This document shows positions 3-17,404 of a stretch of DNA of 18,104 nucleotides, one piece after another. Each line of letters opens with the position of its first letter. Position 1 is the first letter of the stretch. The stretch is taken from positions 1-18,104 of the forward strand of contig CALBRH010000042.1 of the NCBI GenBank assembly GCA_937899865.1, read 5' to 3'. Below the pieces are notes generated by a model, which did not search any database, was not told the origin of the DNA, and saw only the letters and a program-made list of their open reading frames with translations. Origin of the DNA: an uncultured euryarchaeote (GTDB lineage: Archaea > Thermoplasmatota > Poseidoniia > Poseidoniales > Poseidoniaceae). The translations under genes and the position numbers were made by a program.

Positions 3-338
3 TGGAAGCAACGCCAATCAGTAAAAAACGTCGACAGAGAAAAATGGGATGGAGAGAATCAATTATCAAATAAGGTAGAACAATTATTACGCAAAAAACT
101 GTCAGAATTCGGTGATGTTTCATCGTGGGCAAGAACAACAGTAGCAGGAGAAAACAATCTAATGCTCATTAACTGTTCATTTTCTGGTTCAAAACTATCT
201 ATTGGGGTAAGAAATAGTGGGACTCAAGCCAAGATTTCAGTCTCAGCAAGATTGGAATATGGCGGTATAAGTAACGGCATTCAAGAAGCCATAGATGCAG
301 TATGTGATTTACTTGCTAAGCAAATGATTAACCATTGA
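3..338 (+). CDS. Hypothetical protein, 3' part only (runs off the 5' window edge)
   Basis: Manual translation of frame +3 is open from base 3 to TGA at 336-338, 111 codons (WKQRQSVKNVDREKWDGENQLSNKVEQLLRKKLSEFGDVSSWARTT...GIQEAIDAVCDLLAKQMINH*). It is not in the ORF track, and I recognise no family. It overlaps the stop of the convergent gene by 11 bp. Confidence 0.75.
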   Translation, partial: WKQRQSVKNVDREKWDGENQLSNKVEQLLRKKLSEFGDVSSWARTTVAGENNLMLINCSFSGSKLSIGVRNSGTQAKISVSARLEYGGISNGIQEAIDAVCDLLAKQMINH

Positions 339-3300
339 TAATTTCTTTTTCATAGGTTTGGTTAAGGTACGTTACAATACCCAATAGAATAGAAGACGCA
401 ATCAGTATTGCTAACATCGTTTCAATTCCAGCACCGGTGCTAAACATAACCATTGCAACAATCCACGCAAGCACCATATCCAAAGCACCGAAGACTCTCC
501 AAGATTTACGCATGACTAAAATTCCACTAACCCATGATGTTGCAGAGCAAACAGTGAGCAATACAGCAACGACAACCAAAGCACCCCATCCAAATCCAGA
601 TGGTATCAATAACAGATGAACTGACCACAAACCAGCAGCCAACCAGGCGCCAGAATCAGTGACGATAGACCATATTACGAATAATATAGACAAACCTCCA
701 ATGATAGTCGAAATTATGTGTATTCCGATAGGCTCTAATCCAATCGGTTCTAAACTCCAATACATTAACCCAGAAAGAGCGATTGGAATTGTTAGCCAAG
801 CAACCATTACTGCTGCAGGTTGGGTCCAATTCCAACCACGCCTTAGAACGAAAATTATTGCTAAAATTCCGGCTAATCCAATTGATATTAATCCAGCAAA
901 TATCACCCATGCAGCACGTCCAACAGCCCCTCTGTGATCTGCTAAACCACGCATTAAACGCTGTTTTTCTACCCAGTCATATGCTAAAACACATGCCAAT
1001 AACACAACTTCAACAAATAATAGTGGCAAAGTCCAATCTATCATACCACCATCAAAAGGATCGACTCTATACATGACAGGAACCTCTCCACCAATAATCA
1101 AAGCCAAAACTCTGTCCACTGCTAAAAGATAAACAACACCTTCTACCGCATTAGGAATGCGCAATCCCAAATCATTTCTACCAATCAAACCAATTCCCGC
1201 AAGCACACATAGCCCTGCTGTAATGACTGCCAAATGTTTAGCATCATCAAGTCCAACAACTGAATCGGAAATTCTACCAGCAAGATGGACTAAAACCAAT
1301 CCTGCCATAGATATTGCAATTGGTAATTCAATCCCTGCAACATCAGGAAGTCTTAGTCCGATATCATTAGCTCTAATACGCGCCAGTGCGATGAATAGAA
1401 TGGAAATTACCACACAAAATGCTAGAACAAGATAAGACAGAGAAGTTGTGAAAGATAGATATGCAGATGCTAGAATAGTCGTAACTAAGAATGCCATAAC
1501 AATAACTGGTTTGTGATGAATGTCACCAATCTCTAAATCATATTCGCCAGTTGTACCAGCTCGCTTTGCTCGCTTACGTTGTTTTTCTACAAGGTCAAGC
1601 ATTTCAACATCAATCATCTTTAATTTAGTCTTGTTATCTTCTTCTTGCAATATTGCATTAGAGTCGCCCATTTCTTCTGCTTGTGTTTCAACAAATTTTT
1701 GCAACCTGGCCTGTTTTTCTTCGATTCTCAACAAACGCTCCTCTCTCTTAGCAACAGACCGAATTTCACTTCGGAACTCACCCTGTATAGCAAGATATGC
1801 GCCCGCACCAATGAATGCTAGAATAGTAGTTAACAGTACAATGGCCGAATCTTTGATTTGTGCTGTAATCGCCATAACGGCAAGCAACGCAACAGCAGCA
1901 ATCGCAGGCGGCAACAACTTTTCAACCGTTGCAGCACGCCTTAGATAGAGTGCTAAAGCAACCAGTGTGATCACTGTTAAAATATACAAATTAAGAATTT
2001 CATCAGGCAGTATTGAACTGCCATCTAATTGCATTAAATTGAGTGGTTCAAGTGCAATTATAATGAATAATCCCGATAGAAGACCCATCATTAATGTCAA
2101 TAATTGACCAGGCATTGCTTCCGCCTTTTTCAATAACTCCTCACTCATACCAGAATTCTTCTTTCTATCAGAAGAAATTAGTAAAATTGCGCTTGTAATT
2201 ACTAGAGTAATCGCCCAAACTCCTTGTTGCCCATAAGTCCACGATAGGGCAATAGCCGAAATCCCCCAAATAGTCATCAATGATCGAGGTTTTCCTTTGT
2301 GCTTACCAAGCAAGACCATAATTGCATGACTTATCATCAATAATGTCAACACTCCAAACAGACCAATTGCTGGAAGAGACCCAGGTCTTGTTATCGACCA
2401 AGTTACAAATAGGGCTAACAAGAAACTTAAATTCCATAATTGCAGAACTTCTGAATCTCTAATTCTTGCGCCTAGTTCGGACATTCCACTCAATCTTGAT
2501 GCTAGATTGAATCCAGTTTCTCCATGTTTTATGTTAACCCAAATCTGTTGAGATAATAGAATCAACATCCAAGCAGCAAGATCATATTGCTCGATTAGAA
2601 TAGGTACATAGTCAGCAGAAACCAAACGGTTTTCAGCATCGGTGGCAAAAAATAGCAACCATAACCAAGGGCCAACTACAGCAGTTCCAGCGATCGATGG
2701 AGAATCCCTATACATCGACAATTGTGCCAATCCAACCCATACAATACCCTGACTAATCAGTAGAGTTCTTGCCCCACTACCTTCATCATTTGCTGGTATG
2801 AGTAGAGTTAGTAGGGTAACAATCACCAAACCTCCAGCCCATAACACATGGTCAGAAACTGCAGTTTGGTTTCGTAATAATGCACCAGCGGTAAAAGCTG
2901 CAGTTATTGCAGCATAGAAACTATACGGCCGTAAGCCATATGGCAAATCAACATCAGCAATCCCACTTTCTAAAATCGCTAAGGCAAATAATAAAATCGG
3001 AGCAGGCAGTATGATTAATGGCAATAACCTTGACCATTCCACTCCTCTTACTACAAGATACGAAGCACTGAATGCAGTTAGTAATAGGACTAATTGCGCT
3101 AAAGCATAACCGGTTTCTAACCGATTTGCTGCAACAGCCAATAATGCCCCAATCATCCCAAGGCCGACTGAAACAGACCATAACCCAGGTTTTCCAAGCC
3201 CCAATGATTTGAATGCATCTGAGAACCAGTTGTCTTTCTCAACAAACTTCGCAGCCATAGTAGAATTAGTCGCAGTAACACAAACCATTAGTAGAAATAG

Positions 3301-4227
3301 TAACAATTCATCTTCAAACGGTAAAATCTCGAGTCCAAAGAAGTCCCAATTATTCGAAATAGCATGTACTCCCACCCAAAGGTATGATACGGCAATACCC
3401 ATGCTGGCAAGATTGCCAGAGTTACGGATTATCGCAAGGCCGTGTAGCATAATTGTTCCAATACCAATCATTATCGCCACACCAAACTCACCATATAGTG
3501 CACCAGCGGCACTTCCTACAACCAATAAAATCAAAATTGCTTGAGCTGCAATAGCATCTTCATCATGACGTTGAGCTATGCCTATATTCAGCACAACTCC
3601 AAGGAGTAACAAAGCACCAAGCAAGTTATCTTCGTCAGCAAATGAGAAATCATCTAACCATCCCCAATGCCATAAATCCAATGCCAAACCGTAGATTAAT
3701 TTCATCGAAATAATTACCCAAGTGACTCCCAAAATTCTCATGTTTGGGTTCGGAATCCATTTTTCCCCTAAGTATAACCCGACGATTGCCATTACACTGA
3801 GGCCAATTGCCCCAAATATAGGGTCTAGAACTGTACCAACTATTGTGCCGATTAGCGACCATGAAAAAATCATGGCAATCAGTAGCCCAAAACCTAATCT
3901 TTTTTCCCCATATACTGCTAAATCTGTAACACTATCCATTTCCGGAGCGGTTTTTACCGTACCGTCCTTTTGGATAGCACCCGCTCGATCAAAATCTTCT
4001 CCTCCTTTGGAAAAAATCTCAGCGATTTCTCCCATTGCGATATCTTTCTCTTCCTCAACTTTCTCAACGGCTTTAGCCCAAAGGTCGTCTTGTTCGTCCT
4101 TCTCATCAATCATAAACGACGTGATATCAATTCCGCGAGCCCTTGAAAATGACTGCTTCCTAATGATTTCATCACGAGAATCATTTTTGTCAGCAGGCTT
4201 CTTCTGCTCACCCGAATCCTCAGTCAT
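328..4227 (-). CDS. Very large polytopic membrane protein (~1299 aa), possibly DUF2339-like
   Basis: Long ORF 328..4278. The likely start is ATG 4227 (MTEDSGEQ...), because the upstream extension overlaps the divergent ORF/promoter region. It has an acidic soluble N-terminus (~110 aa), then dozens of hydrophobic segments and one charged soluble loop. Segments such as 'AQRHDEDAIAAQAILILL' resemble DUF2339 proteins from memory; the family is unverified. Confidence 0.85.
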   Translation of the reverse strand: MTEDSGEQKKPADKNDSRDEIIRKQSFSRARGIDITSFMIDEKDEQDDLWAKAVEKVEEEKDIAMGEIAEIFSKGGEDFDRAGAIQKDGTVKTAPEMDSVTDLAVYGEKRLGFGLLIAMIFSWSLIGTIVGTVLDPIFGAIGLSVMAIVGLYLGEKWIPNPNMRILGVTWVIISMKLIYGLALDLWHWGWLDDFSFADEDNLLGALLLLGVVLNIGIAQRHDEDAIAAQAILILLVVGSAAGALYGEFGVAIMIGIGTIMLHGLAIIRNSGNLASMGIAVSYLWVGVHAISNNWDFFGLEILPFEDELLLFLLMVCVTATNSTMAAKFVEKDNWFSDAFKSLGLGKPGLWSVSVGLGMIGALLAVAANRLETGYALAQLVLLLTAFSASYLVVRGVEWSRLLPLIILPAPILLFALAILESGIADVDLPYGLRPYSFYAAITAAFTAGALLRNQTAVSDHVLWAGGLVIVTLLTLLIPANDEGSGARTLLISQGIVWVGLAQLSMYRDSPSIAGTAVVGPWLWLLFFATDAENRLVSADYVPILIEQYDLAAWMLILLSQQIWVNIKHGETGFNLASRLSGMSELGARIRDSEVLQLWNLSFLLALFVTWSITRPGSLPAIGLFGVLTLLMISHAIMVLLGKHKGKPRSLMTIWGISAIALSWTYGQQGVWAITLVITSAILLISSDRKKNSGMSEELLKKAEAMPGQLLTLMMGLLSGLFIIIALEPLNLMQLDGSSILPDEILNLYILTVITLVALALYLRRAATVEKLLPPAIAAVALLAVMAITAQIKDSAIVLLTTILAFIGAGAYLAIQGEFRSEIRSVAKREERLLRIEEKQARLQKFVETQAEEMGDSNAILQEEDNKTKLKMIDVEMLDLVEKQRKRAKRAGTTGEYDLEIGDIHHKPVIVMAFLVTTILASAYLSFTTSLSYLVLAFCVVISILFIALARIRANDIGLRLPDVAGIELPIAISMAGLVLVHLAGRISDSVVGLDDAKHLAVITAGLCVLAGIGLIGRNDLGLRIPNAVEGVVYLLAVDRVLALIIGGEVPVMYRVDPFDGGMIDWTLPLLFVEVVLLACVLAYDWVEKQRLMRGLADHRGAVGRAAWVIFAGLISIGLAGILAIIFVLRRGWNWTQPAAVMVAWLTIPIALSGLMYWSLEPIGLEPIGIHIISTIIGGLSILFVIWSIVTDSGAWLAAGLWSVHLLLIPSGFGWGALVVVAVLLTVCSATSWVSGILVMRKSWRVFGALDMVLAWIVAMVMFSTGAGIETMLAILIASSILLGIVTYLNQTYEKEIING

Positions 4228-4283
4228 ACAACCAGTAGTTTGAGCATATGTATTCAATCCTCGCCCCGATTTATTCACTTTTA

Positions 4284-4310
4284 CTTGATTTTTTGGCCAT
4301 TCAAATCAAG
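4284..4310. promoter_or_regulatory. 8-bp inverted repeat (CTTGATTT-N11-AAATCAAG) in the divergent intergenic region
   Basis: Arms at 4284-4291 and 4303-4310 are exact reverse complements and lie in the 152-bp gap between the membrane protein gene and pckA. The regulatory role is inferred. Confidence 0.3.
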
Positions 4311-4379
4311 CGAAAAAAATATTCTAATTACAACATCACTAAACGAAAAGGACAAAGACGACCTCCACTTCGATTTAGC

Positions 4380-5981
4380 ATGGCGGAAGTAGTGGGTTCG
4401 CAATTTGGCGACCTATCTGTACACGGGTTGAACTGTGCAGGAAACATCCATTGGAATCTACCAGTTGAAGAATTAGTAGAGATGGCAGTATCACGCCAAG
4501 AAGGAATTTACAGCGCGCATAAAGCACTGGTAACCGAAACAGGTGAAAGAACAGGGCGGTCTCCTAATGACAAATTTATTGTTGATGAGCCTACAACTAA
4601 TTCCGATGTTAATTGGGGCGATGTGAACATTTCAACAGATTTGGCTACATTTAACAAAATGAGGGCTAAAGTAATCGAATATTTGTCAAAGCGAGAAGAT
4701 TTGTTTGTTCAAGACCTGTATTGCGGAGCAGATATGTCTGAAGCATTATCCATTAGGGTGATTAATCAGAATGCATGGCATAATGCCTTTGCAAGGAATA
4801 TGTTCATCAGACCAACAATTGAGCAATTAGCTCAACATGAACCGGAATTCACAGTATATCATGCACCGCATTTTGAAGCCGGCCCAGAGGACGGCCTTAA
4901 CTCTGAATGTTTTGTAATTGTAAATTATCAAGCAGGAGAAGTTTTGATTGGCGGCACTAAGTATGCTGGCGAAATTAAGAAGTCAATATTTTCTGTAATG
5001 AATTTAATATTACCAAAGAAGGGTATACTTCCAATGCACTGTTCTGCAAATACCAATGGTGAAAACACTGCAGTTTTCTTCGGGCTTTCAGGAACCGGGA
5101 AAACCACGCTTTCAGCAGATCCAAAAAGAGCTCTTATCGGTGATGACGAACATGGCTGGGGGGCAAACGGGGTCTTCAATTTCGAAGGCGGCTGTTATGC
5201 CAAATTGATAGATTTATCAGAGGAAGATGAACCAGAAATATTTGGTACAACACGTAAATTTGGTTCAATTTTGGAAAACATTGTCATGGATGAAAACGGT
5301 ATACCAGATTTCCATGACACTTCTAAAACTCAAAACACAAGGGGGTCTTATCCAATCGAGTTCATAGATAATAGAACCAAAGATTCAACCGGAGGGCACC
5401 CACAAAATGTTATCTTTTTGACCTGTGATGCATTTGGTGTATTGCCACCAATTTCTCGACTAACACCCGAACAAGCAGCATATCATTTCATTTCAGGATA
5501 TACGGCAAAAGTTGCTGGCACAGAAGTTGGAGTTAAGGAGCCACAGGCGACATTTTCAGCATGTTTTGGTGAGCCATTTATGCCAATGCACCCTGGAGTT
5601 TATGCTGATTTATTGTCCAAGAAGATGGAAGAGCATAAAGCAACAGCCTGGCTAATCAATACAGGTTGGTCTGGGGGGCCTTATGGTGTTGGAAATCGTA
5701 TGAAGATCAAGTATACTAGAGCGATGCTAAATGCAGCCTTAGATGGAGATTTAGACGATGTATCATATATCGTCGATGATAGATTCGGTTTTGAAATACC
5801 AGAAACCTGTCCAAATGTTCCTAGTGAAGTACTACAACCAATCCACACATGGGGCGATAGCGACTCTTACAATAAGACAGCAGACAACCTCGCCAAGATG
5901 TTTGTCGACAATTTCAAACGTTATGAGGCAGGAGTTTCAGACGCTGTAAATGCATCATCTCCAAGAACATTAGCAAACTAA
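4380..5981 (+). CDS. pckA: Phosphoenolpyruvate carboxykinase (ATP)
   Basis: Motifs GTKYAGEIKKSIFS, PMHCSAN, P-loop FFGLSGTGKTTLSAD, LIGDDEHGW, NFEGGCYAK and NTRGSYPI. The likely start is ATG 4380 (MAEVVG...), giving 533 aa, a typical length for the ATP-dependent family. Confidence 0.97.
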   Translation: MAEVVGSQFGDLSVHGLNCAGNIHWNLPVEELVEMAVSRQEGIYSAHKALVTETGERTGRSPNDKFIVDEPTTNSDVNWGDVNISTDLATFNKMRAKVIEYLSKREDLFVQDLYCGADMSEALSIRVINQNAWHNAFARNMFIRPTIEQLAQHEPEFTVYHAPHFEAGPEDGLNSECFVIVNYQAGEVLIGGTKYAGEIKKSIFSVMNLILPKKGILPMHCSANTNGENTAVFFGLSGTGKTTLSADPKRALIGDDEHGWGANGVFNFEGGCYAKLIDLSEEDEPEIFGTTRKFGSILENIVMDENGIPDFHDTSKTQNTRGSYPIEFIDNRTKDSTGGHPQNVIFLTCDAFGVLPPISRLTPEQAAYHFISGYTAKVAGTEVGVKEPQATFSACFGEPFMPMHPGVYADLLSKKMEEHKATAWLINTGWSGGPYGVGNRMKIKYTRAMLNAALDGDLDDVSYIVDDRFGFEIPETCPNVPSEVLQPIHTWGDSDSYNKTADNLAKMFVDNFKRYEAGVSDAVNASSPRTLAN

Positions 5982-9968: not shown

Positions 9969-10943
9969 ATGGCAATCTTGGTAATTCACGGCGGCGCTGG
10001 TGGCGATGGCCCTTGGTTGGGTAAAACGCCACTAGATCCTGCGAGAATTGATTGTATGAAACAAGTTTTACAACAAGTAGGAAGCAAATTAGAAAGCGGT
10101 GAAATAGATTGTTTAGAAGCGGTTACATTAGCGGTTGAAATGCTTGAAGATGAGCCGTTATTCAATGCTGGACAAGGCTCAGTCATCGGCGAAGATAGCA
10201 CGATAACCATGGATGCATCAATTATGCGAGGTAGCGATAAAGCCGCAGGCGCAGTTATCAATGTGTCAAAATTACGACACCCAATTAGAGCTGCTAATAT
10301 TATTTTACAACAAGGTTGGCCAGTAATTTTGAATAGCGATGCTGCAGATGAATTTGGAATTGCTAATGGTGTTGAAGAAGTCAGTCAAGACTGGTTGAAA
10401 ACCGAGTTGCGATTAGGCCAATGGCAACAGTGGAAAAATAGCAAAAATATACCAGGCTCTACTGATGAAGACGATTCCGTCCTTGATCATGACCTCGAGG
10501 GCCGAGTTGCCACCGAGTTTTCAGATGAAGGAATGGGTACAGTAGGGGCTGTAGCACTTGATAACAATGGAGCGCTTGCAGCTGCAACCTCAACTGGCGG
10601 TATGACAGGCAAACCGGCTGGAAGAGTTGGTGACACAGCGATTATCGGTGCTGGAACTTGGGCTGATGATAAAATAGCAGTTTCTTGTACTGGAGTTGGA
10701 GAAGCTTACATCCGTACTTGTGCAGCACATAGTTTGGCTACTAGGTATCAATTTTCTAGTAACTTATCTCAATCAGCAACTCAACTGCTTGATGAAGTTG
10801 CACCACTAGGTGGCAGAGGAGGTTTGATTGCCATTACTTCAGATGGCGATTTTGTTATGCCATTCCAAACACGTTTGATGTATCGTGGCTCATGGAAAAA
10901 TGGTTCTTTAGAGATTGGAATTGGTCCACCACTCGAGCAATAG
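9969..10943 (+). CDS. iaaA: Isoaspartyl peptidase / L-asparaginase (Ntn-hydrolase, plant-type asparaginase family)
   Basis: N-terminal IHGGAG, LEDEPLFNAG, MDASIM, the autocleavage site MG|TVGAVALD (nucleophile Thr191, codon 10539-10541), TSTGG and GRVGD. It starts 3 bp after the cyclophilin stop. Confidence 0.92.
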   Translation: MAILVIHGGAGGDGPWLGKTPLDPARIDCMKQVLQQVGSKLESGEIDCLEAVTLAVEMLEDEPLFNAGQGSVIGEDSTITMDASIMRGSDKAAGAVINVSKLRHPIRAANIILQQGWPVILNSDAADEFGIANGVEEVSQDWLKTELRLGQWQQWKNSKNIPGSTDEDDSVLDHDLEGRVATEFSDEGMGTVGAVALDNNGALAAATSTGGMTGKPAGRVGDTAIIGAGTWADDKIAVSCTGVGEAYIRTCAAHSLATRYQFSSNLSQSATQLLDEVAPLGGRGGLIAITSDGDFVMPFQTRLMYRGSWKNGSLEIGIGPPLEQ

Positions 10944-10950
10944 ATATTAT

Positions 10951-10968
10951 TTAATAATTAATTATTAA
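10951..10968. promoter_or_regulatory. Perfect 18-bp palindrome TTAATAATTAATTATTAA, a candidate operator overlapping the putative fumC promoter
   Basis: All 9 base pairs were checked as self-complementary. It lies in the 34-bp iaaA-fumC gap and ends 9 nt before ATG 10978. An AT-rich TATA-like stretch sits about 20-30 nt upstream of that ATG. Function is inferred. Confidence 0.5.
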
Positions 10969-10977
10969 CCGCTTACT

Positions 10978-12570
10978 ATGTCTAAACATAGAGTGGGAGA
11001 TAGGCGAATAATCAGTATTAGCATCCCCGAGGAATTAGCAGTAAGATTGGACCGCAGTGTCGGGAAAGGCAAATCCGGGCGAAGTGCAACCATTGCCAAA
11101 ATGATAGATGGAGCATTAAACCCCAAGATTATTTCAAAGACTGAAAAAGCGATAAAACCTGCAAAAAAAGATAGTGTAGGCGTACGTATTGAAAGCGATA
11201 CTATGGGAGATTTAGAAGTCGCAAGTGACCGATATTATGGTTGTCAAACTGCTAGATCGTTAATCAATTTTGATATCGGCGACGACACTATGCCAAGAGG
11301 GGTAATTCGCTCCTTTGGTATTCTCAAACAAGCCGCAGCGAAAACTAATGTGGCGCTAAAACAACTAGATTCAGAAGTAGGGCAATTGATTATCCAGGCA
11401 GCACAAGAAGTCATTGATGGCGATTTAGATGAGCATTTTCCACTAAGAGTTTGGCAAACCGGCAGTGGTACACAATCAAACATGAATTCCAATGAGGTAA
11501 TCGCCAACCGAGCAATAGAAATTGCTGGAGGAGAGTTGGGTTCGAAAACACCTGTACACCCAAACGACCATGTAAATCGTGCCCAATCTTCAAACGATAC
11601 ATTTCCAACCGCTATGCACATCGCATCAGCAGAAGCCTTTGTCCATGATTTACTACCTAGTGTAAGAGCATTGAGAAATGCTTTAGATGATAAAGCAAAA
11701 CAATGGTCTGATATTGTAAAAATTGGCCGCACCCATCTAATGGATGCTGTTCCTTTGACCCTTGGTCAAGAAGTCTCAGGATGGGTATCTCAATTAGATG
11801 CTGATTTGAGAAGATTAGATTTCGCTCTCGACGATTTATTCGAGCTGGCGCTTGGTGGGACAGCAGTAGGAACGGGGCTTAACACCCACCCACTTTTCGC
11901 TCAAATGGTTGCTGATGAAATATCGAATATTACCGGTTTGACCTTTGTCAGTGCAGATAACAAATTTGCTCAATTAGCCGCTCATGATGCAGTTGTTGCA
12001 GCCAGCGGTGCATTGAATACCTTAGCAGTGAGTTTGATGAAGATAGCCAATGACATTCGTTGGTTAGGTTCTGGCCCTAGATGCGGACTTGGAGAATTAG
12101 CCTTGCCAGCAAATGAACCAGGCTCGTCAATTATGCCTGGTAAAGTGAATCCAACACAGGCGGAGGCAATGACGATGGTTTGTTGTCAAGTAATGGGTAA
12201 TCACACAGCAATCACGGTTGGCGGTTCTCAAGGCAACTTTGAGTTGAATGTCTACAAACCGATGATGATTCACAATTTATTGCATTCAATCAGACTACTA
12301 ACAGACTCATGTCGTTCAATGAGGGAAAATTGTGTTGAAGGATTAGAACCTGTAGCAGACAACATCACCCAACATCTAGAAAATTCACTCATGTTAGTTA
12401 CTGCTCTAAACAATCATATCGGATATGATAAAGCAGCTAAGATAGCAAAGAATGCCCATGAAAAAGGGCTGACATTAAGAGAATCTGCGTTGGCATTGGG
12501 GTATCTTACAAACGAAGAGTTTGATGAGTGGGTAAGGCCAGAACAGATGATAGGACCATCAGTAAAATGA
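10978..12570 (+). CDS. fumC: Class II fumarate hydratase with an N-terminal RHH (CopG/NikR-like) domain
   Basis: FumC core from about aa 70 (RIESDTMG): [44 protein letters not shown] (catalytic His) and the signature [16 protein letters not shown], which is fumarase-type rather than aspartase-type. Aa 9-47 ([20 protein letters not shown]...[14 protein letters not shown]) match the RHH pattern. Confidence 0.95.
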
Positions 12571-15500
12571 TCACAGGAAATCCGAGAGTGACATTTGCCT
12601 AGCGCGGTCGTTTTGGAATAATGAGTCGGTACTATTTGCTAACCACTCAACATTTTGTTTAGTGTAAGTATCAACACCATATTTCTCCATTACGTGTTGT
12701 GTGACTTTGATATATTTTCTAACTGCTCCTTCTGAAACAGTGAGAGCCAAGTTACCATTACACAAATCACCTGAAGATTTTGTAATTCCAAGTGAGCCAA
12801 AACCGGCATTACTGGCTTTACTAATCTGTATGCACTTGCCTGAAATAGGCATTCTGCGATATGAATGTCCACATTTCAAACACCTTACTTTTTGTCTAGC
12901 AAATGCGTTTAGATTACCTCTCAAATCGGGTAGGAAATGAGATCTAATTACACTTGAAGCAACCTTTCTAACATCCACTGCTCGTAATATATGTCCAAGG
13001 TCAAGTTGGCCATTCATTTTGTCGATCATTGTATCAAGAGTTTTGTATGCTGAAAGCGCAGGACCTGTAGAAATAGATTCACAATCATGAGTAAATCCAT
13101 ATCCTCTAACAGCAGCAACAGAACCCAATCTTCGCTCTACAAAGTCGACTCGGTTTGCAATATCTTTCGGATGAGGACAATCTTGCGTTGCCTCATAGAA
13201 ATCTCGCTCATAATACCAACCAGAGTCAACATTGAGGGCTTCTTTATCAACCTCGGTAGGGTTTAACCTGGTCGTCAAAACGAGAGGTGCATCCATTTGC
13301 CCACCTCTATTTGCTGGTAGAATTTCTCGACTAAAATTCAGCAATCCATCCATCAGCAACATGATTGCATCTTCATCACCATCACAATTTCTTCTTTTGG
13401 AAGCGTGAAATAGCGGATGAGCATAACCACCTGAACAATCTGCCCAGCCAATAATTCTTGATAGTACGCCTCCTGAGGTGTGAGGTGCAAGAGCACAAAT
13501 CAAATGGCCAACTAAATCTTCAGCAGCGGACACATTATAATACGGCTCAAGCCCATAATATCGAGTCAATAATTCATCAACAAATTGAGCAGTTCGAACA
13601 AAATAATCAGCAGCATTTTTTGCTACAATAAAGTCTTGCGGGTACAACTCCAACATTTGCTCATCCGAGGTTAATTCATTGCCAAGATAGTCGTGAGTAT
13701 AGCCCAAATTGATCAATTGTTTCCAAGAAACATCAATTTCTTTAGGCTTGAAATGTGTAACAGGGACATCACTCATGTCAAATCTCACGGTCCCATCTCT
13801 AAACACAGGAATGTCATATTTTGCCCTTAAAATTCCCTTTTCTAATGCTTCAGGAGTCTGATTTTTACTGGCAATTTTTTTCATGCATTTGATACTATTT
13901 GGCAATCTTTCAAGTCCAAGATTAATCATCGCATCTTCGATCATTGAGGCAATTGGAACAGTGGTAATCTCGCCTCTTCTGCGCCTATTTGTTTCAAGTT
14001 CTTTTTTGAACTCGGTTCTACCGCCGCATTTTTCTCCAACGATTGTCTCCCCATATTCATCGATTTTTCTATGGTGGCATGATAACATAGGCGATTTTTT
14101 CCCACATGTAATACATGTTCTAAGGCCTAACTGAACACGGATATCTTTCTTATCTGCTGCATTGGAAAGCAATCTTTGGTTGCCGCCATTCAATTCGATT
14201 GGAAACAAGGTGTGAGCCATAGGATTCATAATTCTAGGCGCTGATTTTTCAGGGCGGCCCATTCGACAACCGATTCTTACTGGTGCTGAATGATGCCACC
14301 TTAATTTGGATATTTTCTTTATTATCGGTAAAATACCGTCAACACGATGATTATCTCGGTCTATTTGTGCAGCTAAGAATTTGTTAGCATCTTTAGGCCC
14401 TTCGTCAGGGATGTTGGCTGCTGCAATACGACCGATTTCATCTGTCTCAGCAATTGACTTACCCAATTGTCTAGCATTGGTTTCGGCAGAAATACGCTGA
14501 ATAGCTCGCTCCTTCTCCAATTCTTCTAAACGCAACTCTTCTTTTGCCAATACAGTTTCAGCAAGTTTTAGTTTAGCAATCCTATCTTCAAATATTTTCT
14601 TTGAATCAACAATCATTATCGGTTTATCGCCGTCAATCGAAAAACCAAATGCTTCCATCATAGCCGACCAGCCGCTAGTAATTACCAAGTCATCACCATC
14701 ATGATGGTGTGCAAGGCCTAGGATGAGCGCAGAGCCCTTTGCAAGGCCATGTTGTTGTAAAGTCCATAATGCTGATAATTTGTGATCAAAGATAAAATTA
14801 TCAACAGAAAAACTTGGACCAGGCGCCTCTTTAATATCATCAACAGAAATTTCTGCTGGAGACATCTCTAGCATAATATCGGATTTCCAATTGATGACAC
14901 CATCCTTGATTCTTAGGCATTTTTCTTCACGCTTGGGCATCAAATTTTGATTTGAATCTGCTTGCAAATCTTCAACGGTTGCTTGCTTGAGCAATTCAAT
15001 AAATTCAGGCACCCACTCGATAGGCAAATCAAGAAACCATGGGTTATGTGAAGGCGGTAAAGAAGTTTTGAACTTTTCAGCAATTTCTTTTGCTTGTAGC
15101 CAATTTGGTTGTTGAGTAACTAGGAATCTATGCCATTGCCGTCTTACATTAAATCTAAGGGCAGCATCTGGAAATTGTTCCTTTGATAATCCTGGTACTC
15201 CAGTCGGGCACTCATTTCTTACTAAATCCATAATCGAGCAGAAGTTTGCAACCAATTCTGGAGAGCTTAATTCTTCAATTAAGTCACTAGCCCACCAATC
15301 CATTGAATATCCTGCAGGAACAAGATTCTTGTTATTCTCCATAAATTCCCCATAGCCAATTACAATCTCACCATTATCCCATATTGCTCCAATATCATCC
15401 TTTACTTCATTGAAACTTTCAATAGTGTCACAACGCGTAAAACTTCCATCGCGAAGCACAACCCATGGCCCATCAGTATTACTCGAGGGAGTAATGGCAC

Positions 15501-16659
15501 ATGCCTTTCCAGGGCGTTCAATTTTCATTTGAGTTCCAATTGTGATGAAATCATCCATTGCTAACATGCAAGCAGGATTAACTGAAGCAGCAGCAAGTCC
15601 AGAAGGTCTTGACCGACCATATCTTAATCTGAATCCTCCAGGTTCTTGTGGAGAACCAAAGACTGGTCTGCCCGCAATAATATCATTCATGAATTTAGTA
15701 ATTGGCTCAATTAGCCGGGATTTGAATTTGACTTTTTCATCATCATCATCTTTCTTATCCTTTTCAGCAAATTTTGTGATAAATTCCCACCCAGATATCT
15801 TCATCCTCTCGGTATGCTTTCGAATTTTTGGTGCTTTCAAACACATTCCTTCACCAATTACTAGTAAAACCCCACCTCTAATTCTGGCTTCGTCAATATT
15901 TCTCACGTTACCATAACCAGCACACTCGATTCTTTCCGTGGATTCACCATTGATCATCACTGGGCATGCCCTAACAATTTCATCGATTTCTTCAGGAGTT
16001 GGGCGATATTGTAAGTTGCCGCGATACAAACCGAACTCTTCTTTGACACGTTCTACTTCAGGGTCTGTTGGTTGATATCTTCCAACATTTAATTCGATTC
16101 TAATCATGTCTGCAATCAATACAGCAAGGGCTTGGGCGGTACCTCCTGCGGCTCGAATCGGCCCTGCAAAATGGACAGATACGAACTGTGAACCATCGAG
16201 ATTATTCAATAAACGAACTTCACTAATTCCTTCTAGAGGGGCGACTAGAACAGCTTCAGTAAGAATTGCCAGCCCAACACGTAAACCAACATCTATTGCA
16301 GTAACCAAATCATGTCCTTGATCACGAAAACCACGGGCAACCGATTGAGCCATCAACATTGAAGTCGTTTCACGGTCATGTTTAGCGAGCATTTTCCGAA
16401 TATCATCTGCAACTTCGTATTCTCCAAGATATTCTACTAGTAATTTTTCAGTTCTTCCTGCAAGGTCTGCCGCTCTTGGTATTTCGACAAATGGCTTGTA
16501 GTCAAGGTTTTTTCCTCTTGCTATTTCAGCAATACGATACGCATCATCGGTTTTTTCATCCATCCATTGCTGATAACTATTCATTTCGTTTTTAAGCCTT
16601 GAAATATCTAATCCATCGGTTGGATTTAGGTCGAAATTCGCATTGACCGTATCCGACAT
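12571..16659 (-). CDS. polC: DNA polymerase D large subunit (DP2)
   Basis: Motifs GLRVGLAILTEAVLVAPLEGI, FAGPIRAAGGTAQAL, GGFRLRYGRSR, RIGCRMGRPEK, FRDGTVRFD, LAPHTSGG, catalytic KRRNCDGDED, RSHFLPDLRGNL and a C-terminal CxxC Zn finger. The likely start is ATG 16659 (MSDTVN...), 1362 aa. No intein. Confidence 0.97.
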   Translation of the reverse strand: MSDTVNANFDLNPTDGLDISRLKNEMNSYQQWMDEKTDDAYRIAEIARGKNLDYKPFVEIPRAADLAGRTEKLLVEYLGEYEVADDIRKMLAKHDRETTSMLMAQSVARGFRDQGHDLVTAIDVGLRVGLAILTEAVLVAPLEGISEVRLLNNLDGSQFVSVHFAGPIRAAGGTAQALAVLIADMIRIELNVGRYQPTDPEVERVKEEFGLYRGNLQYRPTPEEIDEIVRACPVMINGESTERIECAGYGNVRNIDEARIRGGVLLVIGEGMCLKAPKIRKHTERMKISGWEFITKFAEKDKKDDDDEKVKFKSRLIEPITKFMNDIIAGRPVFGSPQEPGGFRLRYGRSRPSGLAAASVNPACMLAMDDFITIGTQMKIERPGKACAITPSSNTDGPWVVLRDGSFTRCDTIESFNEVKDDIGAIWDNGEIVIGYGEFMENNKNLVPAGYSMDWWASDLIEELSSPELVANFCSIMDLVRNECPTGVPGLSKEQFPDAALRFNVRRQWHRFLVTQQPNWLQAKEIAEKFKTSLPPSHNPWFLDLPIEWVPEFIELLKQATVEDLQADSNQNLMPKREEKCLRIKDGVINWKSDIMLEMSPAEISVDDIKEAPGPSFSVDNFIFDHKLSALWTLQQHGLAKGSALILGLAHHHDGDDLVITSGWSAMMEAFGFSIDGDKPIMIVDSKKIFEDRIAKLKLAETVLAKEELRLEELEKERAIQRISAETNARQLGKSIAETDEIGRIAAANIPDEGPKDANKFLAAQIDRDNHRVDGILPIIKKISKLRWHHSAPVRIGCRMGRPEKSAPRIMNPMAHTLFPIELNGGNQRLLSNAADKKDIRVQLGLRTCITCGKKSPMLSCHHRKIDEYGETIVGEKCGGRTEFKKELETNRRRRGEITTVPIASMIEDAMINLGLERLPNSIKCMKKIASKNQTPEALEKGILRAKYDIPVFRDGTVRFDMSDVPVTHFKPKEIDVSWKQLINLGYTHDYLGNELTSDEQMLELYPQDFIVAKNAADYFVRTAQFVDELLTRYYGLEPYYNVSAAEDLVGHLICALAPHTSGGVLSRIIGWADCSGGYAHPLFHASKRRNCDGDEDAIMLLMDGLLNFSREILPANRGGQMDAPLVLTTRLNPTEVDKEALNVDSGWYYERDFYEATQDCPHPKDIANRVDFVERRLGSVAAVRGYGFTHDCESISTGPALSAYKTLDTMIDKMNGQLDLGHILRAVDVRKVASSVIRSHFLPDLRGNLNAFARQKVRCLKCGHSYRRMPISGKCIQISKASNAGFGSLGITKSSGDLCNGNLALTVSEGAVRKYIKVTQHVMEKYGVDTYTKQNVEWLANSTDSLFQNDRARQMSLSDFL
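12574..12597 (-). other. C-terminal PCNA-interacting (PIP) box of DP2
   Basis: The terminal residues QMSLSDFL fit Q-x-x-L-x-x-F-F/L; C-terminal PIP boxes are established for DP2. Confidence 0.8.
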
Positions 16660-16804
16660 AACCCTCACTATTTGACAAGAAAGCCGACCGCTTATCAAAA
16701 ATTGCCCAAATCCGGTGTTGGAAAAATAAATCAAGGTGTTTTTTGTAATATAATTAGCAAATTGGCAAGGAAAGTTGATTATCCATTTTGCCAACCAATC
16801 ACAG

Positions 16805-17404
16805 ATGAGCACTTCACAATCAATACGAAGTCATCCAAAATGGTCAAGACTTGTTGATTTGGTTAGAGAATTAGCCTTCATTGATGGTGGTAGCGATACT
16901 GCATTTACATTGGCTAGCGGCCGACAATCTCGCTGGTTTTTTGATACTAAACCGGTGATGATGCACCCAGAAGCTAGTCATTTGATCGGTGAAATGCTCA
17001 ATCTCCGAATGGATGAATTAGGTGCTGATTTTGTCGGAGGCTTAGAATTGGGCGCCGTTCCGTTGACAGCGATTGCAGTGGCGATGTCATCTAAAGACTC
17101 GCCAAGAAGAGGCTTCATGGTTCGTAAAGAACCTAAAGGTAGAGGCGGACGTAAGACTAACAACCCACCAGGAATAGAGGGCTCATCATTGTCTGCAGGT
17201 GGAAAAATCGTCATCGTTGAAGATGTCACCACTACTGGTGGTTCTGCCATTAAGGCGGTGGAAAGAATACACAATGACACTAATTGTGAAGTTATAGCAG
17301 TAATCAGCATAGTGGACCGCCAAGAAGGAGCAGTAGAAGCATTTTCTTCGGCCGGAATAAAGTTTGAGAGCATAATGAACAGAAGCGATGTTGCTGAACT
17401 TTGA
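16805..17404 (+). CDS. pyrE: Orotate phosphoribosyltransferase
   Basis: Motifs FTLASGRQSRWFFD, GLELGAVP, VRKEPK and the PRPP-binding motif VIVEDVTTTGGSA. The likely start is ATG 16805 (199 aa); it is divergent from polC. Confidence 0.93.
   Translation: MSTSQSIRSHPKWSRLVDLVRELAFIDGGSDTAFTLASGRQSRWFFDTKPVMMHPEASHLIGEMLNLRMDELGADFVGGLELGAVPLTAIAVAMSSKDSPRRGFMVRKEPKGRGGRKTNNPPGIEGSSLSAGGKIVIVEDVTTTGGSAIKAVERIHNDTNCEVIAVISIVDRQEGAVEAFSSAGIKFESIMNRSDVAEL

Follow-up and report, generated by a model that had tools for sequence, protein, structure and literature searches.

The fumC gene of the uncultured archaeon studied here, a member of the Poseidoniaceae, encodes a class II fumarase (FumC) preceded in the same polypeptide by a ribbon-helix-helix (RHH) domain. 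The product, hereafter referred to as RHH-FumC, is on balance predicted to be an autoregulatory bifunctional enzyme that represses its own gene from a leaderless-mRNA promoter. An A/T dyad lying over the promoter was found at the fused fumC genes essentially alone, which makes autorepression, in our judgement, the best reading of the data; the gene-specificity of this element would favour simple autorepression over a metabolite-sensing trigger. The analysis covered a window of 18,104 nucleotides (the whole stretch of DNA analysed), the genome to which it belongs and other genomes of the order Poseidoniales.

Gene organisation and the N-terminal extension

RHH-fumC is encoded by a single, uninterrupted open reading frame of 530 amino acids (aa) on the forward strand of the window (10978..12570), and its features are listed in Table 1. 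The ATG at 10978 is the earliest usable start because an in-frame TAA occurs at 10966-10968, three codons 5' of it. The frame opens with an extension of ~69 residues (10978-11184), free of stops and frameshifts, that precedes the conserved RIESDTMG. The first-pass annotation of this DNA had reported a 69-aa in-frame N-terminal extension on FumC, followed by a fumarase part of normal length with no ATG nearby. The former is confirmed by the reading frame and the Pfam domain limits, and the latter by the presence of a full core at aa 70-530 with no start codon in the preceding ten codons. The neighbouring genes encode a cyclophilin, an Asparaginase_2 protein, PEP carboxykinase and the PolD large subunit, and no toxin-like partner gene was found adjoining RHH-fumC among the neighbours examined in the window. 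Only one other RHH_1 gene was detected in this genome by the Pfam search.

Table 1. Coordinates of the RHH-fumC gene and its promoter elements in the window
Feature	Position	Strand	Remarks
Intergenic promoter region between the asparaginase-type gene and RHH-fumC	10944..10977	+	34 nt; no Shine-Dalgarno-like sequence before the ATG
TATA box TTTAATAA	10950..10957	+	starts 28 nt before the ATG
Perfect 18-bp palindrome TTAATAATTAATTATTAA, candidate operator	10951..10968	.	overlaps the TATA box; ends 9 nt before the ATG
RHH domain, aa 1-48	10978..11121	+	Pfam, alignment, AF2, fold search, language-model neighbours
Flexible linker, aa 49-69	11122..11184	+	pLDDT <50 at residues 49-66; unconserved
Class II fumarase (FumC) core, aa 70-530, and stop codon	11185..12570	+	Pfam; invariant catalytic residues

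Identity of the N-terminal domain

The curated Pfam model RHH_1 matches aa 12-38 with an E-value of 0.019 and 15.4 bits (15.3 bits in the genome-wide search), under its gathering threshold of 20.5, so that this model by itself does not place the extension in the RHH superfamily; Pfam also matches the RHH part of a HicB-like antitoxin in the extension. A profile built from 17 orthologous RHH domains was searched against 1.84 billion representative proteins and retrieved its own family first, followed by a weak tail of CopG-like RHH proteins. Within the genomes of the phylum, the only profile matches outside the order were proteins of 128-146 aa carrying Pfam RHH_1 and NikR_C. Alignment by hhalign with a NikR-type protein that carries RHH_1 (33.6 bits) and NikR_C gave 95% probability (E 3e-8, 43% identity over 35 columns) and paired R-I-I-S-I-S-I-P-E of RHH-FumC with R-V-V-S-V-S-L-P-E.

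The strand-helix-Gly turn-helix order read earlier from the letters is borne out by the AF2 model built with the ortholog alignment (pLDDT 75.5), which has an extended segment at residues 9-16, not called as a strand by DSSP in the monomer, and helices at 18-28 and 35-47, and by the invariance of G34-R35-S36. In a fold search with this model, ~45 of the best 50 of 48,161 PDB chains were RHH proteins, the matches including ArtA, AmrZ, Arc, NikR, PutA52, MazE, omega, Mnt, ParG and TraM. The Z-scores, 2.6-4.6 over residues 7-52 (PutA52, 3.7), are low, as is to be expected when a 52-aa monomer serves as the model. The protein-language-model neighbours of the domain belonged to RHH families in every case. 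Foldseek returned nothing from the PDB at E <= 0.001, its best rows being the RHH antitoxins VapB12 and MazE-mt1, and a complex prediction with two copies of the domain scored 0.30 against a mark of 0.42, a value that weighs neither for nor against dimerisation. The sole match in a profile search of PDB sequences, RNase PH, was judged to be due to chance.

With four independent lines from sequence and modelling in agreement, the N-terminal domain is taken to be a genuine RHH-type fold. The CopG/Arc/MetJ/NikR pattern proposed for the extension in the first-pass annotation is thus upheld by hhalign, the fold search and the language-model neighbours, with the Pfam match remaining sub-threshold. 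The caveat raised there, that Ile occupies the first DNA-contact position of the strand in place of Arg, loses weight, as the corresponding strand in genuine NikR-family members from the same phylum reads R-V-V-S-V-S-L-P-E. RHH-FumC itself falls outside the NikR family, since Pfam finds no NikR_C in it and its C-terminal part is FumC.

The domain comprises a basic N-terminal arm (K3, H4, R5, R9 and R10), the strand, the first helix, a G-x-G...G-R-S turn and the second helix. A Gly-x-Ser/Thr turn before helix 2 is a superfamily hallmark of RHH proteins, which classically bind DNA sequence-specifically and contact it through a basic arm, outward-facing strand residues and a G-R-S helix cap; in the RHH dimer, one strand from each chain forms a two-stranded sheet that inserts into the major groove. 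Alignment of the 17 sequences, representing three families, revealed conservation well above chance, with 22 invariant positions, among them R5, R9, R10, I11, S13, S15, P17-E18 and G34-R35-S36, with the buried strand positions varying conservatively among I, V, L and M. Such invariance of the arm, the outward-facing strand residues and the helix-2 cap is the pattern that would be expected of a DNA-reading RHH domain.

The fumarase core and the linker

Within the fumarase part, Pfam assigns aa 77-407 to Lyase_1, with an E-value of 6.6e-110 and a score of 367.8 bits (cut-off 27), and aa 473-525 to FumaraseC_C, with an E-value of 3e-26 and a score of 92 bits (cut-off 32.5). The SS-loop signature GSSxMPxKxNP is present as G382-P392 and, like T252-H253, K389, N391 and E396, is invariant in the 17 orthologues; the catalytic and SS-loop residues presumably map to those of Escherichia coli FumC with a constant offset of +65. 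By its domains and catalytic residues the FumC part is therefore an intact class II fumarase, for which enzymatic activity is predicted. Class II fumarases all form tetramers. RHH-FumC seems to be the only fumarase of this archaeon, as no class I fumarase was found in its genome, which is 91% complete.

The ~21-aa linker between the two domains differs in length between lineages and shows a mean identity of 14% and a pN of 0.41-0.75. In the full-length model, residues 49-66 have pLDDT <50 and separate the small domain from a fumarase body modelled with confidence. The Lys-rich character noted for the linker at first sight holds for this species and not as a general trait, the linkers of the relatives being rich in Ser, Pro, Thr and Glu. 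A linker that is disordered and conserved neither in sequence nor in length argues against a tight, NikR-like allosteric coupling of the two domains.

Distribution and conservation of the fusion

The fusion was surveyed in 285 genomes of the order with a completeness of at least 80%. The RHH domain is present in 186 of them, distributed over three families as 73 of 161 (f1), 1 of 2 (f2) and 111 of 121 (f3) genomes; 13 of the 51 genomes of the own genus are fused. Among the matches listed, the domain opens a frame shared with fumC, of ~530-580 aa where complete, while the shorter frames and one 47-aa fragment stop at contig ends; L048 is counted as fused, the 5' end of its fumC falling in a scaffold gap. 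The close relatives bear the public names Candidatus Poseidoniaceae and Poseidoniales archaeon. The recurrence of the domain in frame with fumC removes the possibility, allowed for initially, that an assembly artefact had joined two genes, and the fusion is, on this comparison, a conserved trait of the lineage.

The mean pairwise identity of the RHH domain (72%) is close to that of the enzyme (77%). Synonymous sites are saturated (pS 0.7-1.0) and pN is 0.06-0.22 in the domain against 0.03-0.19 in the enzyme, values by which the RHH domain is shown to be under purifying selection and to evolve like the enzyme. No standalone homologue of the domain was found in this genome, in the fusion-lacking genomes of the order (at E <= 0.001) or among the 1.84 billion representatives, in which the strong matches were all N-terminal fragments of RHH-FumC. 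Separate RHH and FumC genes, which close relatives might have been expected to encode had the fusion been spurious, were thus not encountered; relatives without the domain have lost it. Their unfused FumC begins with M-x-D/E-V-R-I-E-x-D-T-M-G and the unfused genes nest among the fused ones in the FumC tree, requiring at least two to three losses of the domain. This phylogenetic pattern indicates that the common ancestor of the order already had the RHH domain and that its descendants can dispense with it, in keeping with an accessory function, for instance in regulation. Two long frames of the form 'RHH + 430 aa' in high-GC relatives were rejected, being ordinary NikR-like genes with a spurious upstream open frame.

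The orthologues are named plainly 'class II fumarate hydratase' in the databases, and in some NCBI records the protein begins at M42, with 489 aa, or not until the core, with 461 aa. Such naming, together with starts placed inside or after the RHH domain, makes the fusion invisible in the databases.

Promoter organisation and the candidate operator

In each of the 43 fused loci that were examined, the sequence TTTAWTAA (with at most one mismatch) begins between -28 and -32, seven of its eight positions carrying ~2 bits; it is absent 5' of the unfused fumC in the loci examined. An archaeal TATA box sits at a characteristic distance from the transcription start. Given this usual spacing, a TATA box at -28 to -32 places the transcription start at or beside the ATG, from which we infer that the RHH-fumC mRNA is leaderless, and a leaderless start at the ATG would lend independent support to translation from the first codon of the RHH domain. 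No Shine-Dalgarno-like sequence precedes the RHH-fumC ATG in the window. Two other genes carry TTTAWTAA at -28/-29, encoding a membrane protein and a solute-binding-like protein; no link was obvious and a regulon based on this motif was rejected. Generic promoter motifs were also surveyed crudely across this genome, with too much noise for the usual TATA consensus to be defined.

The palindrome TTAATAATTAATTATTAA is unique in the 2.0-Mb genome, in which near-matches (up to three mismatches) lie inside coding regions only, and it is the sole A/T-only 18-bp palindrome of the genome against 0.18 expected. With one mismatch allowed, its 17-mer core is found in 24 of the 72 genomes of the genus. 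The exact-match sites that were checked all lie directly upstream of RHH-fumC (24 of 24), a single stray match with one mismatch was seen, and none was found in the genomes of the genus lacking the RHH domain. Of 63 genomes of the sister family, 40, from six genera, have a single copy of the related 19-mer TTTATTAATAASTWATTAA, located at the fumC promoter, apart from one stray extra match. Four species (G019, G069, G074 and G082) have a second copy of the element, 46-47 bp upstream of the first. The genes 5' of the second copy are co-directional in G019 and in G011, in which the copy is more diverged, the only two species checked; the second copies there are thus not promoters of divergent genes.

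Across species with saturated synonymous sites, ~25 nt of the promoter are invariant, suggesting more constraint than a TATA box alone would need. The part of the element that is invariant order-wide is the TATA box alone, and the downstream half-site has been lost in six fused genera (g3, g4, g11, g25, g26 and g16) with the RHH contact residues unchanged there. The A/T richness between the TATA box and the start can possibly be a plain promoter feature, and the joint loss of the element and the RHH domain may be confounded, as one deletion would remove both. No regulon is proposed, there being, stray matches and the upstream second copies apart, no other copy of the element in the genomes searched.

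Proposed mechanism and alternative roles

According to the proposed mechanism, a single polypeptide made from the leaderless mRNA would comprise the RHH domain (aa 1-48), a disordered tether of ~21 aa and the class II fumarase. The FumC part would tetramerise as in other class II fumarases and the RHH chains would pair via their beta-strands, the tetramer thereby presenting two RHH dimers. These dimers are predicted to occupy the A/T dyad, which extends over the TATA box up to the transcription start of their own gene, and to compete there with TBP, TFB and RNA polymerase, so that the abundance of fumarase would lower the transcription of fumC. Where a second copy is present 46-47 bp upstream, a single tetramer could span the two sites.

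An effect of fumarate or malate on DNA binding is regarded as a less likely option. In a trigger enzyme of the PutA or NikR style, occupancy by the substrate or product would alter the geometry or the availability of the RHH dimers, and the transcription of fumC, possibly together with that of further genes, would follow fumarate/malate levels. The layout envisaged above, a ligand-binding tetramer flanked by RHH dimers, resembles that of NikR, the domain is closest in sequence to RHH domains of the NikR type, and PutA provides an established precedent of an RHH-enzyme regulating its own pathway. The proposal is nevertheless considered unlikely, because a disordered linker of variable length and 14% identity would be a poor allosteric transmitter, neither a regulon nor another copy of the element is visible in the genomes searched and FumC has no redox or membrane switch like that of PutA. 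A related suggestion, held with similarly low confidence, is that the fumarase tetramer acts as the sensor of a NikR-like factor, with fumarate/malate setting the binding, or the looping between operators 46-47 bp apart; if true, abundant ocean archaea would possess a direct enzyme-level read-out of TCA-cycle flux.

Alternatively, the RHH domain might tether the enzyme to the chromosome, binding with little if any sequence specificity and allowing the interconversion of fumarate and malate beside DNA. Its purpose would then not be gene regulation and would resemble the DNA-damage-response role of class II fumarases that has been reported in yeast, human cells and Bacillus subtilis, in the last of which co-localisation with DNA has also been described (PMC5711358; reviewed in PMC6068284). 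Apart from this known function, non-specific binding would be well served by the basic arm at the N-terminus and, in this species, by the Lys-rich linker, and no second genomic target site was found. Against such tethering, the invariant strand residues point to sequence-specific reading of the kind classical for RHH proteins, the promoter element is long, gene-specific and duplicated in some species, and the Lys-rich linker is unconserved, which together render it unlikely, though still a live alternative. A role in protein-protein contacts, be it additional oligomerisation, antitoxin-like partner binding or stabilisation, could be argued from the many RHH antitoxins among the best fold matches and from the dispensability of the domain in several lineages. 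It is deemed very unlikely, as no toxin-like gene adjoins RHH-fumC, the conserved surface is the DNA-contacting set of RHH proteins and the gene-specific promoter dyad would be left unexplained. That the start has been mis-called, with the extension untranslated and the enzyme beginning near residue 65-76, as the public records starting at M42 or at the core would have it, can hardly be credited in view of the strong amino-acid conservation despite saturated synonymous sites, the lack of an ATG, GTG or TTG within ten codons before the core in 17 of the 22 fused genes (including the present one), the replacement of M42 by Leu in 4 of 17 sequences, and a TATA box placed 28-32 nt before the first ATG, with no Shine-Dalgarno-like sequence in this window.

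Comparison with known systems

PutA is a flavoenzyme dimer in which FAD reduction and membrane binding constitute the switch. RHH-FumC resembles the PutA of E. coli, Salmonella and Pseudomonas putida in uniting an N-terminal RHH domain and a metabolic enzyme in one chain, and the repression by PutA of its own operon would have its counterpart in the candidate operator at the RHH-fumC promoter. It differs in its enzyme, which is cofactor-free, soluble and expected to be tetrameric, in its disordered linker, in showing no evident signal-dependent switch and in its host, an archaeon with a TATA-type, leaderless promoter. The initial description of RHH-FumC as a PutA-like trigger enzyme can thus be retained in part: an enzyme and an RHH domain do share one open reading frame in 186 of 285 genomes, and nothing like the redox/membrane switch of PutA is apparent.

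The nearest relatives of the domain are those of NikR, with which it has in common the strand R-h-h-S-h-S-h-P-E and, as envisaged for RHH-FumC, a tetrameric centre flanked on either side by an RHH dimer. In place of the metal-binding NikR_C domain, RHH-FumC has a 461-aa enzyme, and in place of the two distant half-sites of the NikR operator, a candidate A/T dyad over the TATA box. With the canonical FumC of E. coli, B. subtilis and mitochondria (FH), it shares the full Lyase_1 and FumaraseC_C domains, the SS-loop and the catalytic residues, and differs in the additional 69-aa extension of RHH domain and linker.

BirA and NadR are other fusions of enzymes with DNA-binding domains. To our knowledge, few enzymes also act as transcription factors, and a TCA-cycle fumarase is not among them. 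Full-text literature searches for RHH together with fumarase or fumarate hydratase gave incidental co-mentions only and no description of such an extension, in agreement with the earlier statement that no RHH-fumarase was known; in the literature found, the RHH-fumarase is thus undescribed, while fusions of enzymes with DNA-binding domains (PutA, BirA, RbkR) are already known. RbkR, the archaeal riboflavin kinase/regulator, is likewise an archaeal metabolic enzyme fused to a DNA-binding domain and a bifunctional regulator of its own pathway, and differs in that it reportedly employs a winged-helix domain and a multi-gene regulon where RHH-FumC has an RHH domain and a candidate site at its own promoter only (PMC5397151).

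The FumC proteins of the sister order are 46-50% identical to RHH-FumC, lie in open frames of 554-572 aa and carry a different conserved N-terminal module of ~65 aa (M-P-D-Y-T-S-I-R-V-T-K-E-V...), which is not recognised by Pfam and has no profile similarity to the Poseidoniales RHH domain. In their promoters, a pair of repeats that include G/C precedes a TATA box located at about -30. The different module and the different promoter repeats suggest that N-terminal fusions of fumarase arose or were remodelled more than once in the class.

Biological significance

In the surface ocean, the Poseidoniales (Marine Group II) rank among the most abundant archaeal groups, and the RHH-fumC fusion is fixed in most of their species, on what is seemingly their only fumarase. 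The association of class II fumarases with DNA in bacteria and eukaryotes poses an old question, on which RHH-FumC bears. Should its predicted autorepression hold, RHH-FumC would represent a compact model of enzyme-level feedback at an archaeal TATA promoter, consisting of one protein and one site of ~20 bp.

Duplication of the promoter element

The A/T promoter element of RHH-fumC, a candidate operator for autorepression, is duplicated in four species, with the extra copy located 46-47 bp upstream of the first (also at loci L008 and L009), and a more diverged second element occurs approximately 65 bp upstream in genome G011. The genes upstream of fumC are co-directional in genomes G019 and G011, the two in which gene orientation was read; therefore, the second copies there are not promoters of divergent genes.

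Coordinates of the genes and promoter elements discussed (G000, genome of the window)
Feature	Location	Strand
1316-aa ORF	window 328-4278	-
PEP carboxykinase	window 4248-5981	+
Asparaginase_2-type protein	window 9969-10943	+
Fumarase	window 10978-12570	+
PolD large subunit (DP2)	window 12571-16812	-
RHH_1 match, locus L074	G000:C61:16130-16240	-
A/T element, two copies	G019:C4:24207-24270
A/T element, two copies	G069:C8:27570-27633
A/T element, two copies	G074:C5:8360-8422
A/T element, two copies	G082:C100:3059-3122
fumC copies, one fused, one unfused	G151:C9:5909-7288 and G151:C13:299-1681

Fused and unfused fumarases

The orthologue records P0072, P0073 (489 aa) and P0092 (461 aa) in NCBI start either at Met 42, inside helix 2 of the RHH domain, or at the fumarase core, and the domain is thus cut or missing in the public annotation. 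The sole other RHH_1 match in the genome of the window (27.8 bits) lies in a 126-aa open frame, possibly encoding a NikR-like regulator.

A fused fumC (532-aa frame) and an unfused fumC (483-aa frame) are found together in one sister-genus genome, G151; either the gene is genuinely duplicated there or the bin, with 2% contamination, may be mixed. Unfused fumC genes of two genera (g14 and g17; loci L071-L073) have a common GAGGGAAAGGGACATGGA motif about 30-45 nt upstream.

Neighbouring genes

The PEP carboxykinase, Asparaginase_2-type and fumarase genes occupy one strand within a span of 8 kb, and each of their products handles C4 compounds; several species of the genus lack the asparaginase gene at this position. 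The PolD DP2 ORF as listed begins at a GTG, around 50 codons ahead of the likely start MSDTVNANF, and its central domain is matched in two separate stretches, suggesting an insertion. No Pfam family was matched by the 1316-aa ORF at E <= 1e-5.

Fumarases of the sister order

The class also includes a sister order whose FumC (loci L078-L081; genomes G319, G465, G493 and G452) begins with another conserved module, about 65 aa long; no Pfam match was obtained for this module, and no similarity to the RHH domain of RHH-FumC was detected with hhalign. The promoters of these fumC genes contain a TATA box about 30 nt 5' of the ATG and, immediately upstream of it, two repeated or palindromic boxes of the type ATATTGCATA / TGTATGCA...TGCATACA.
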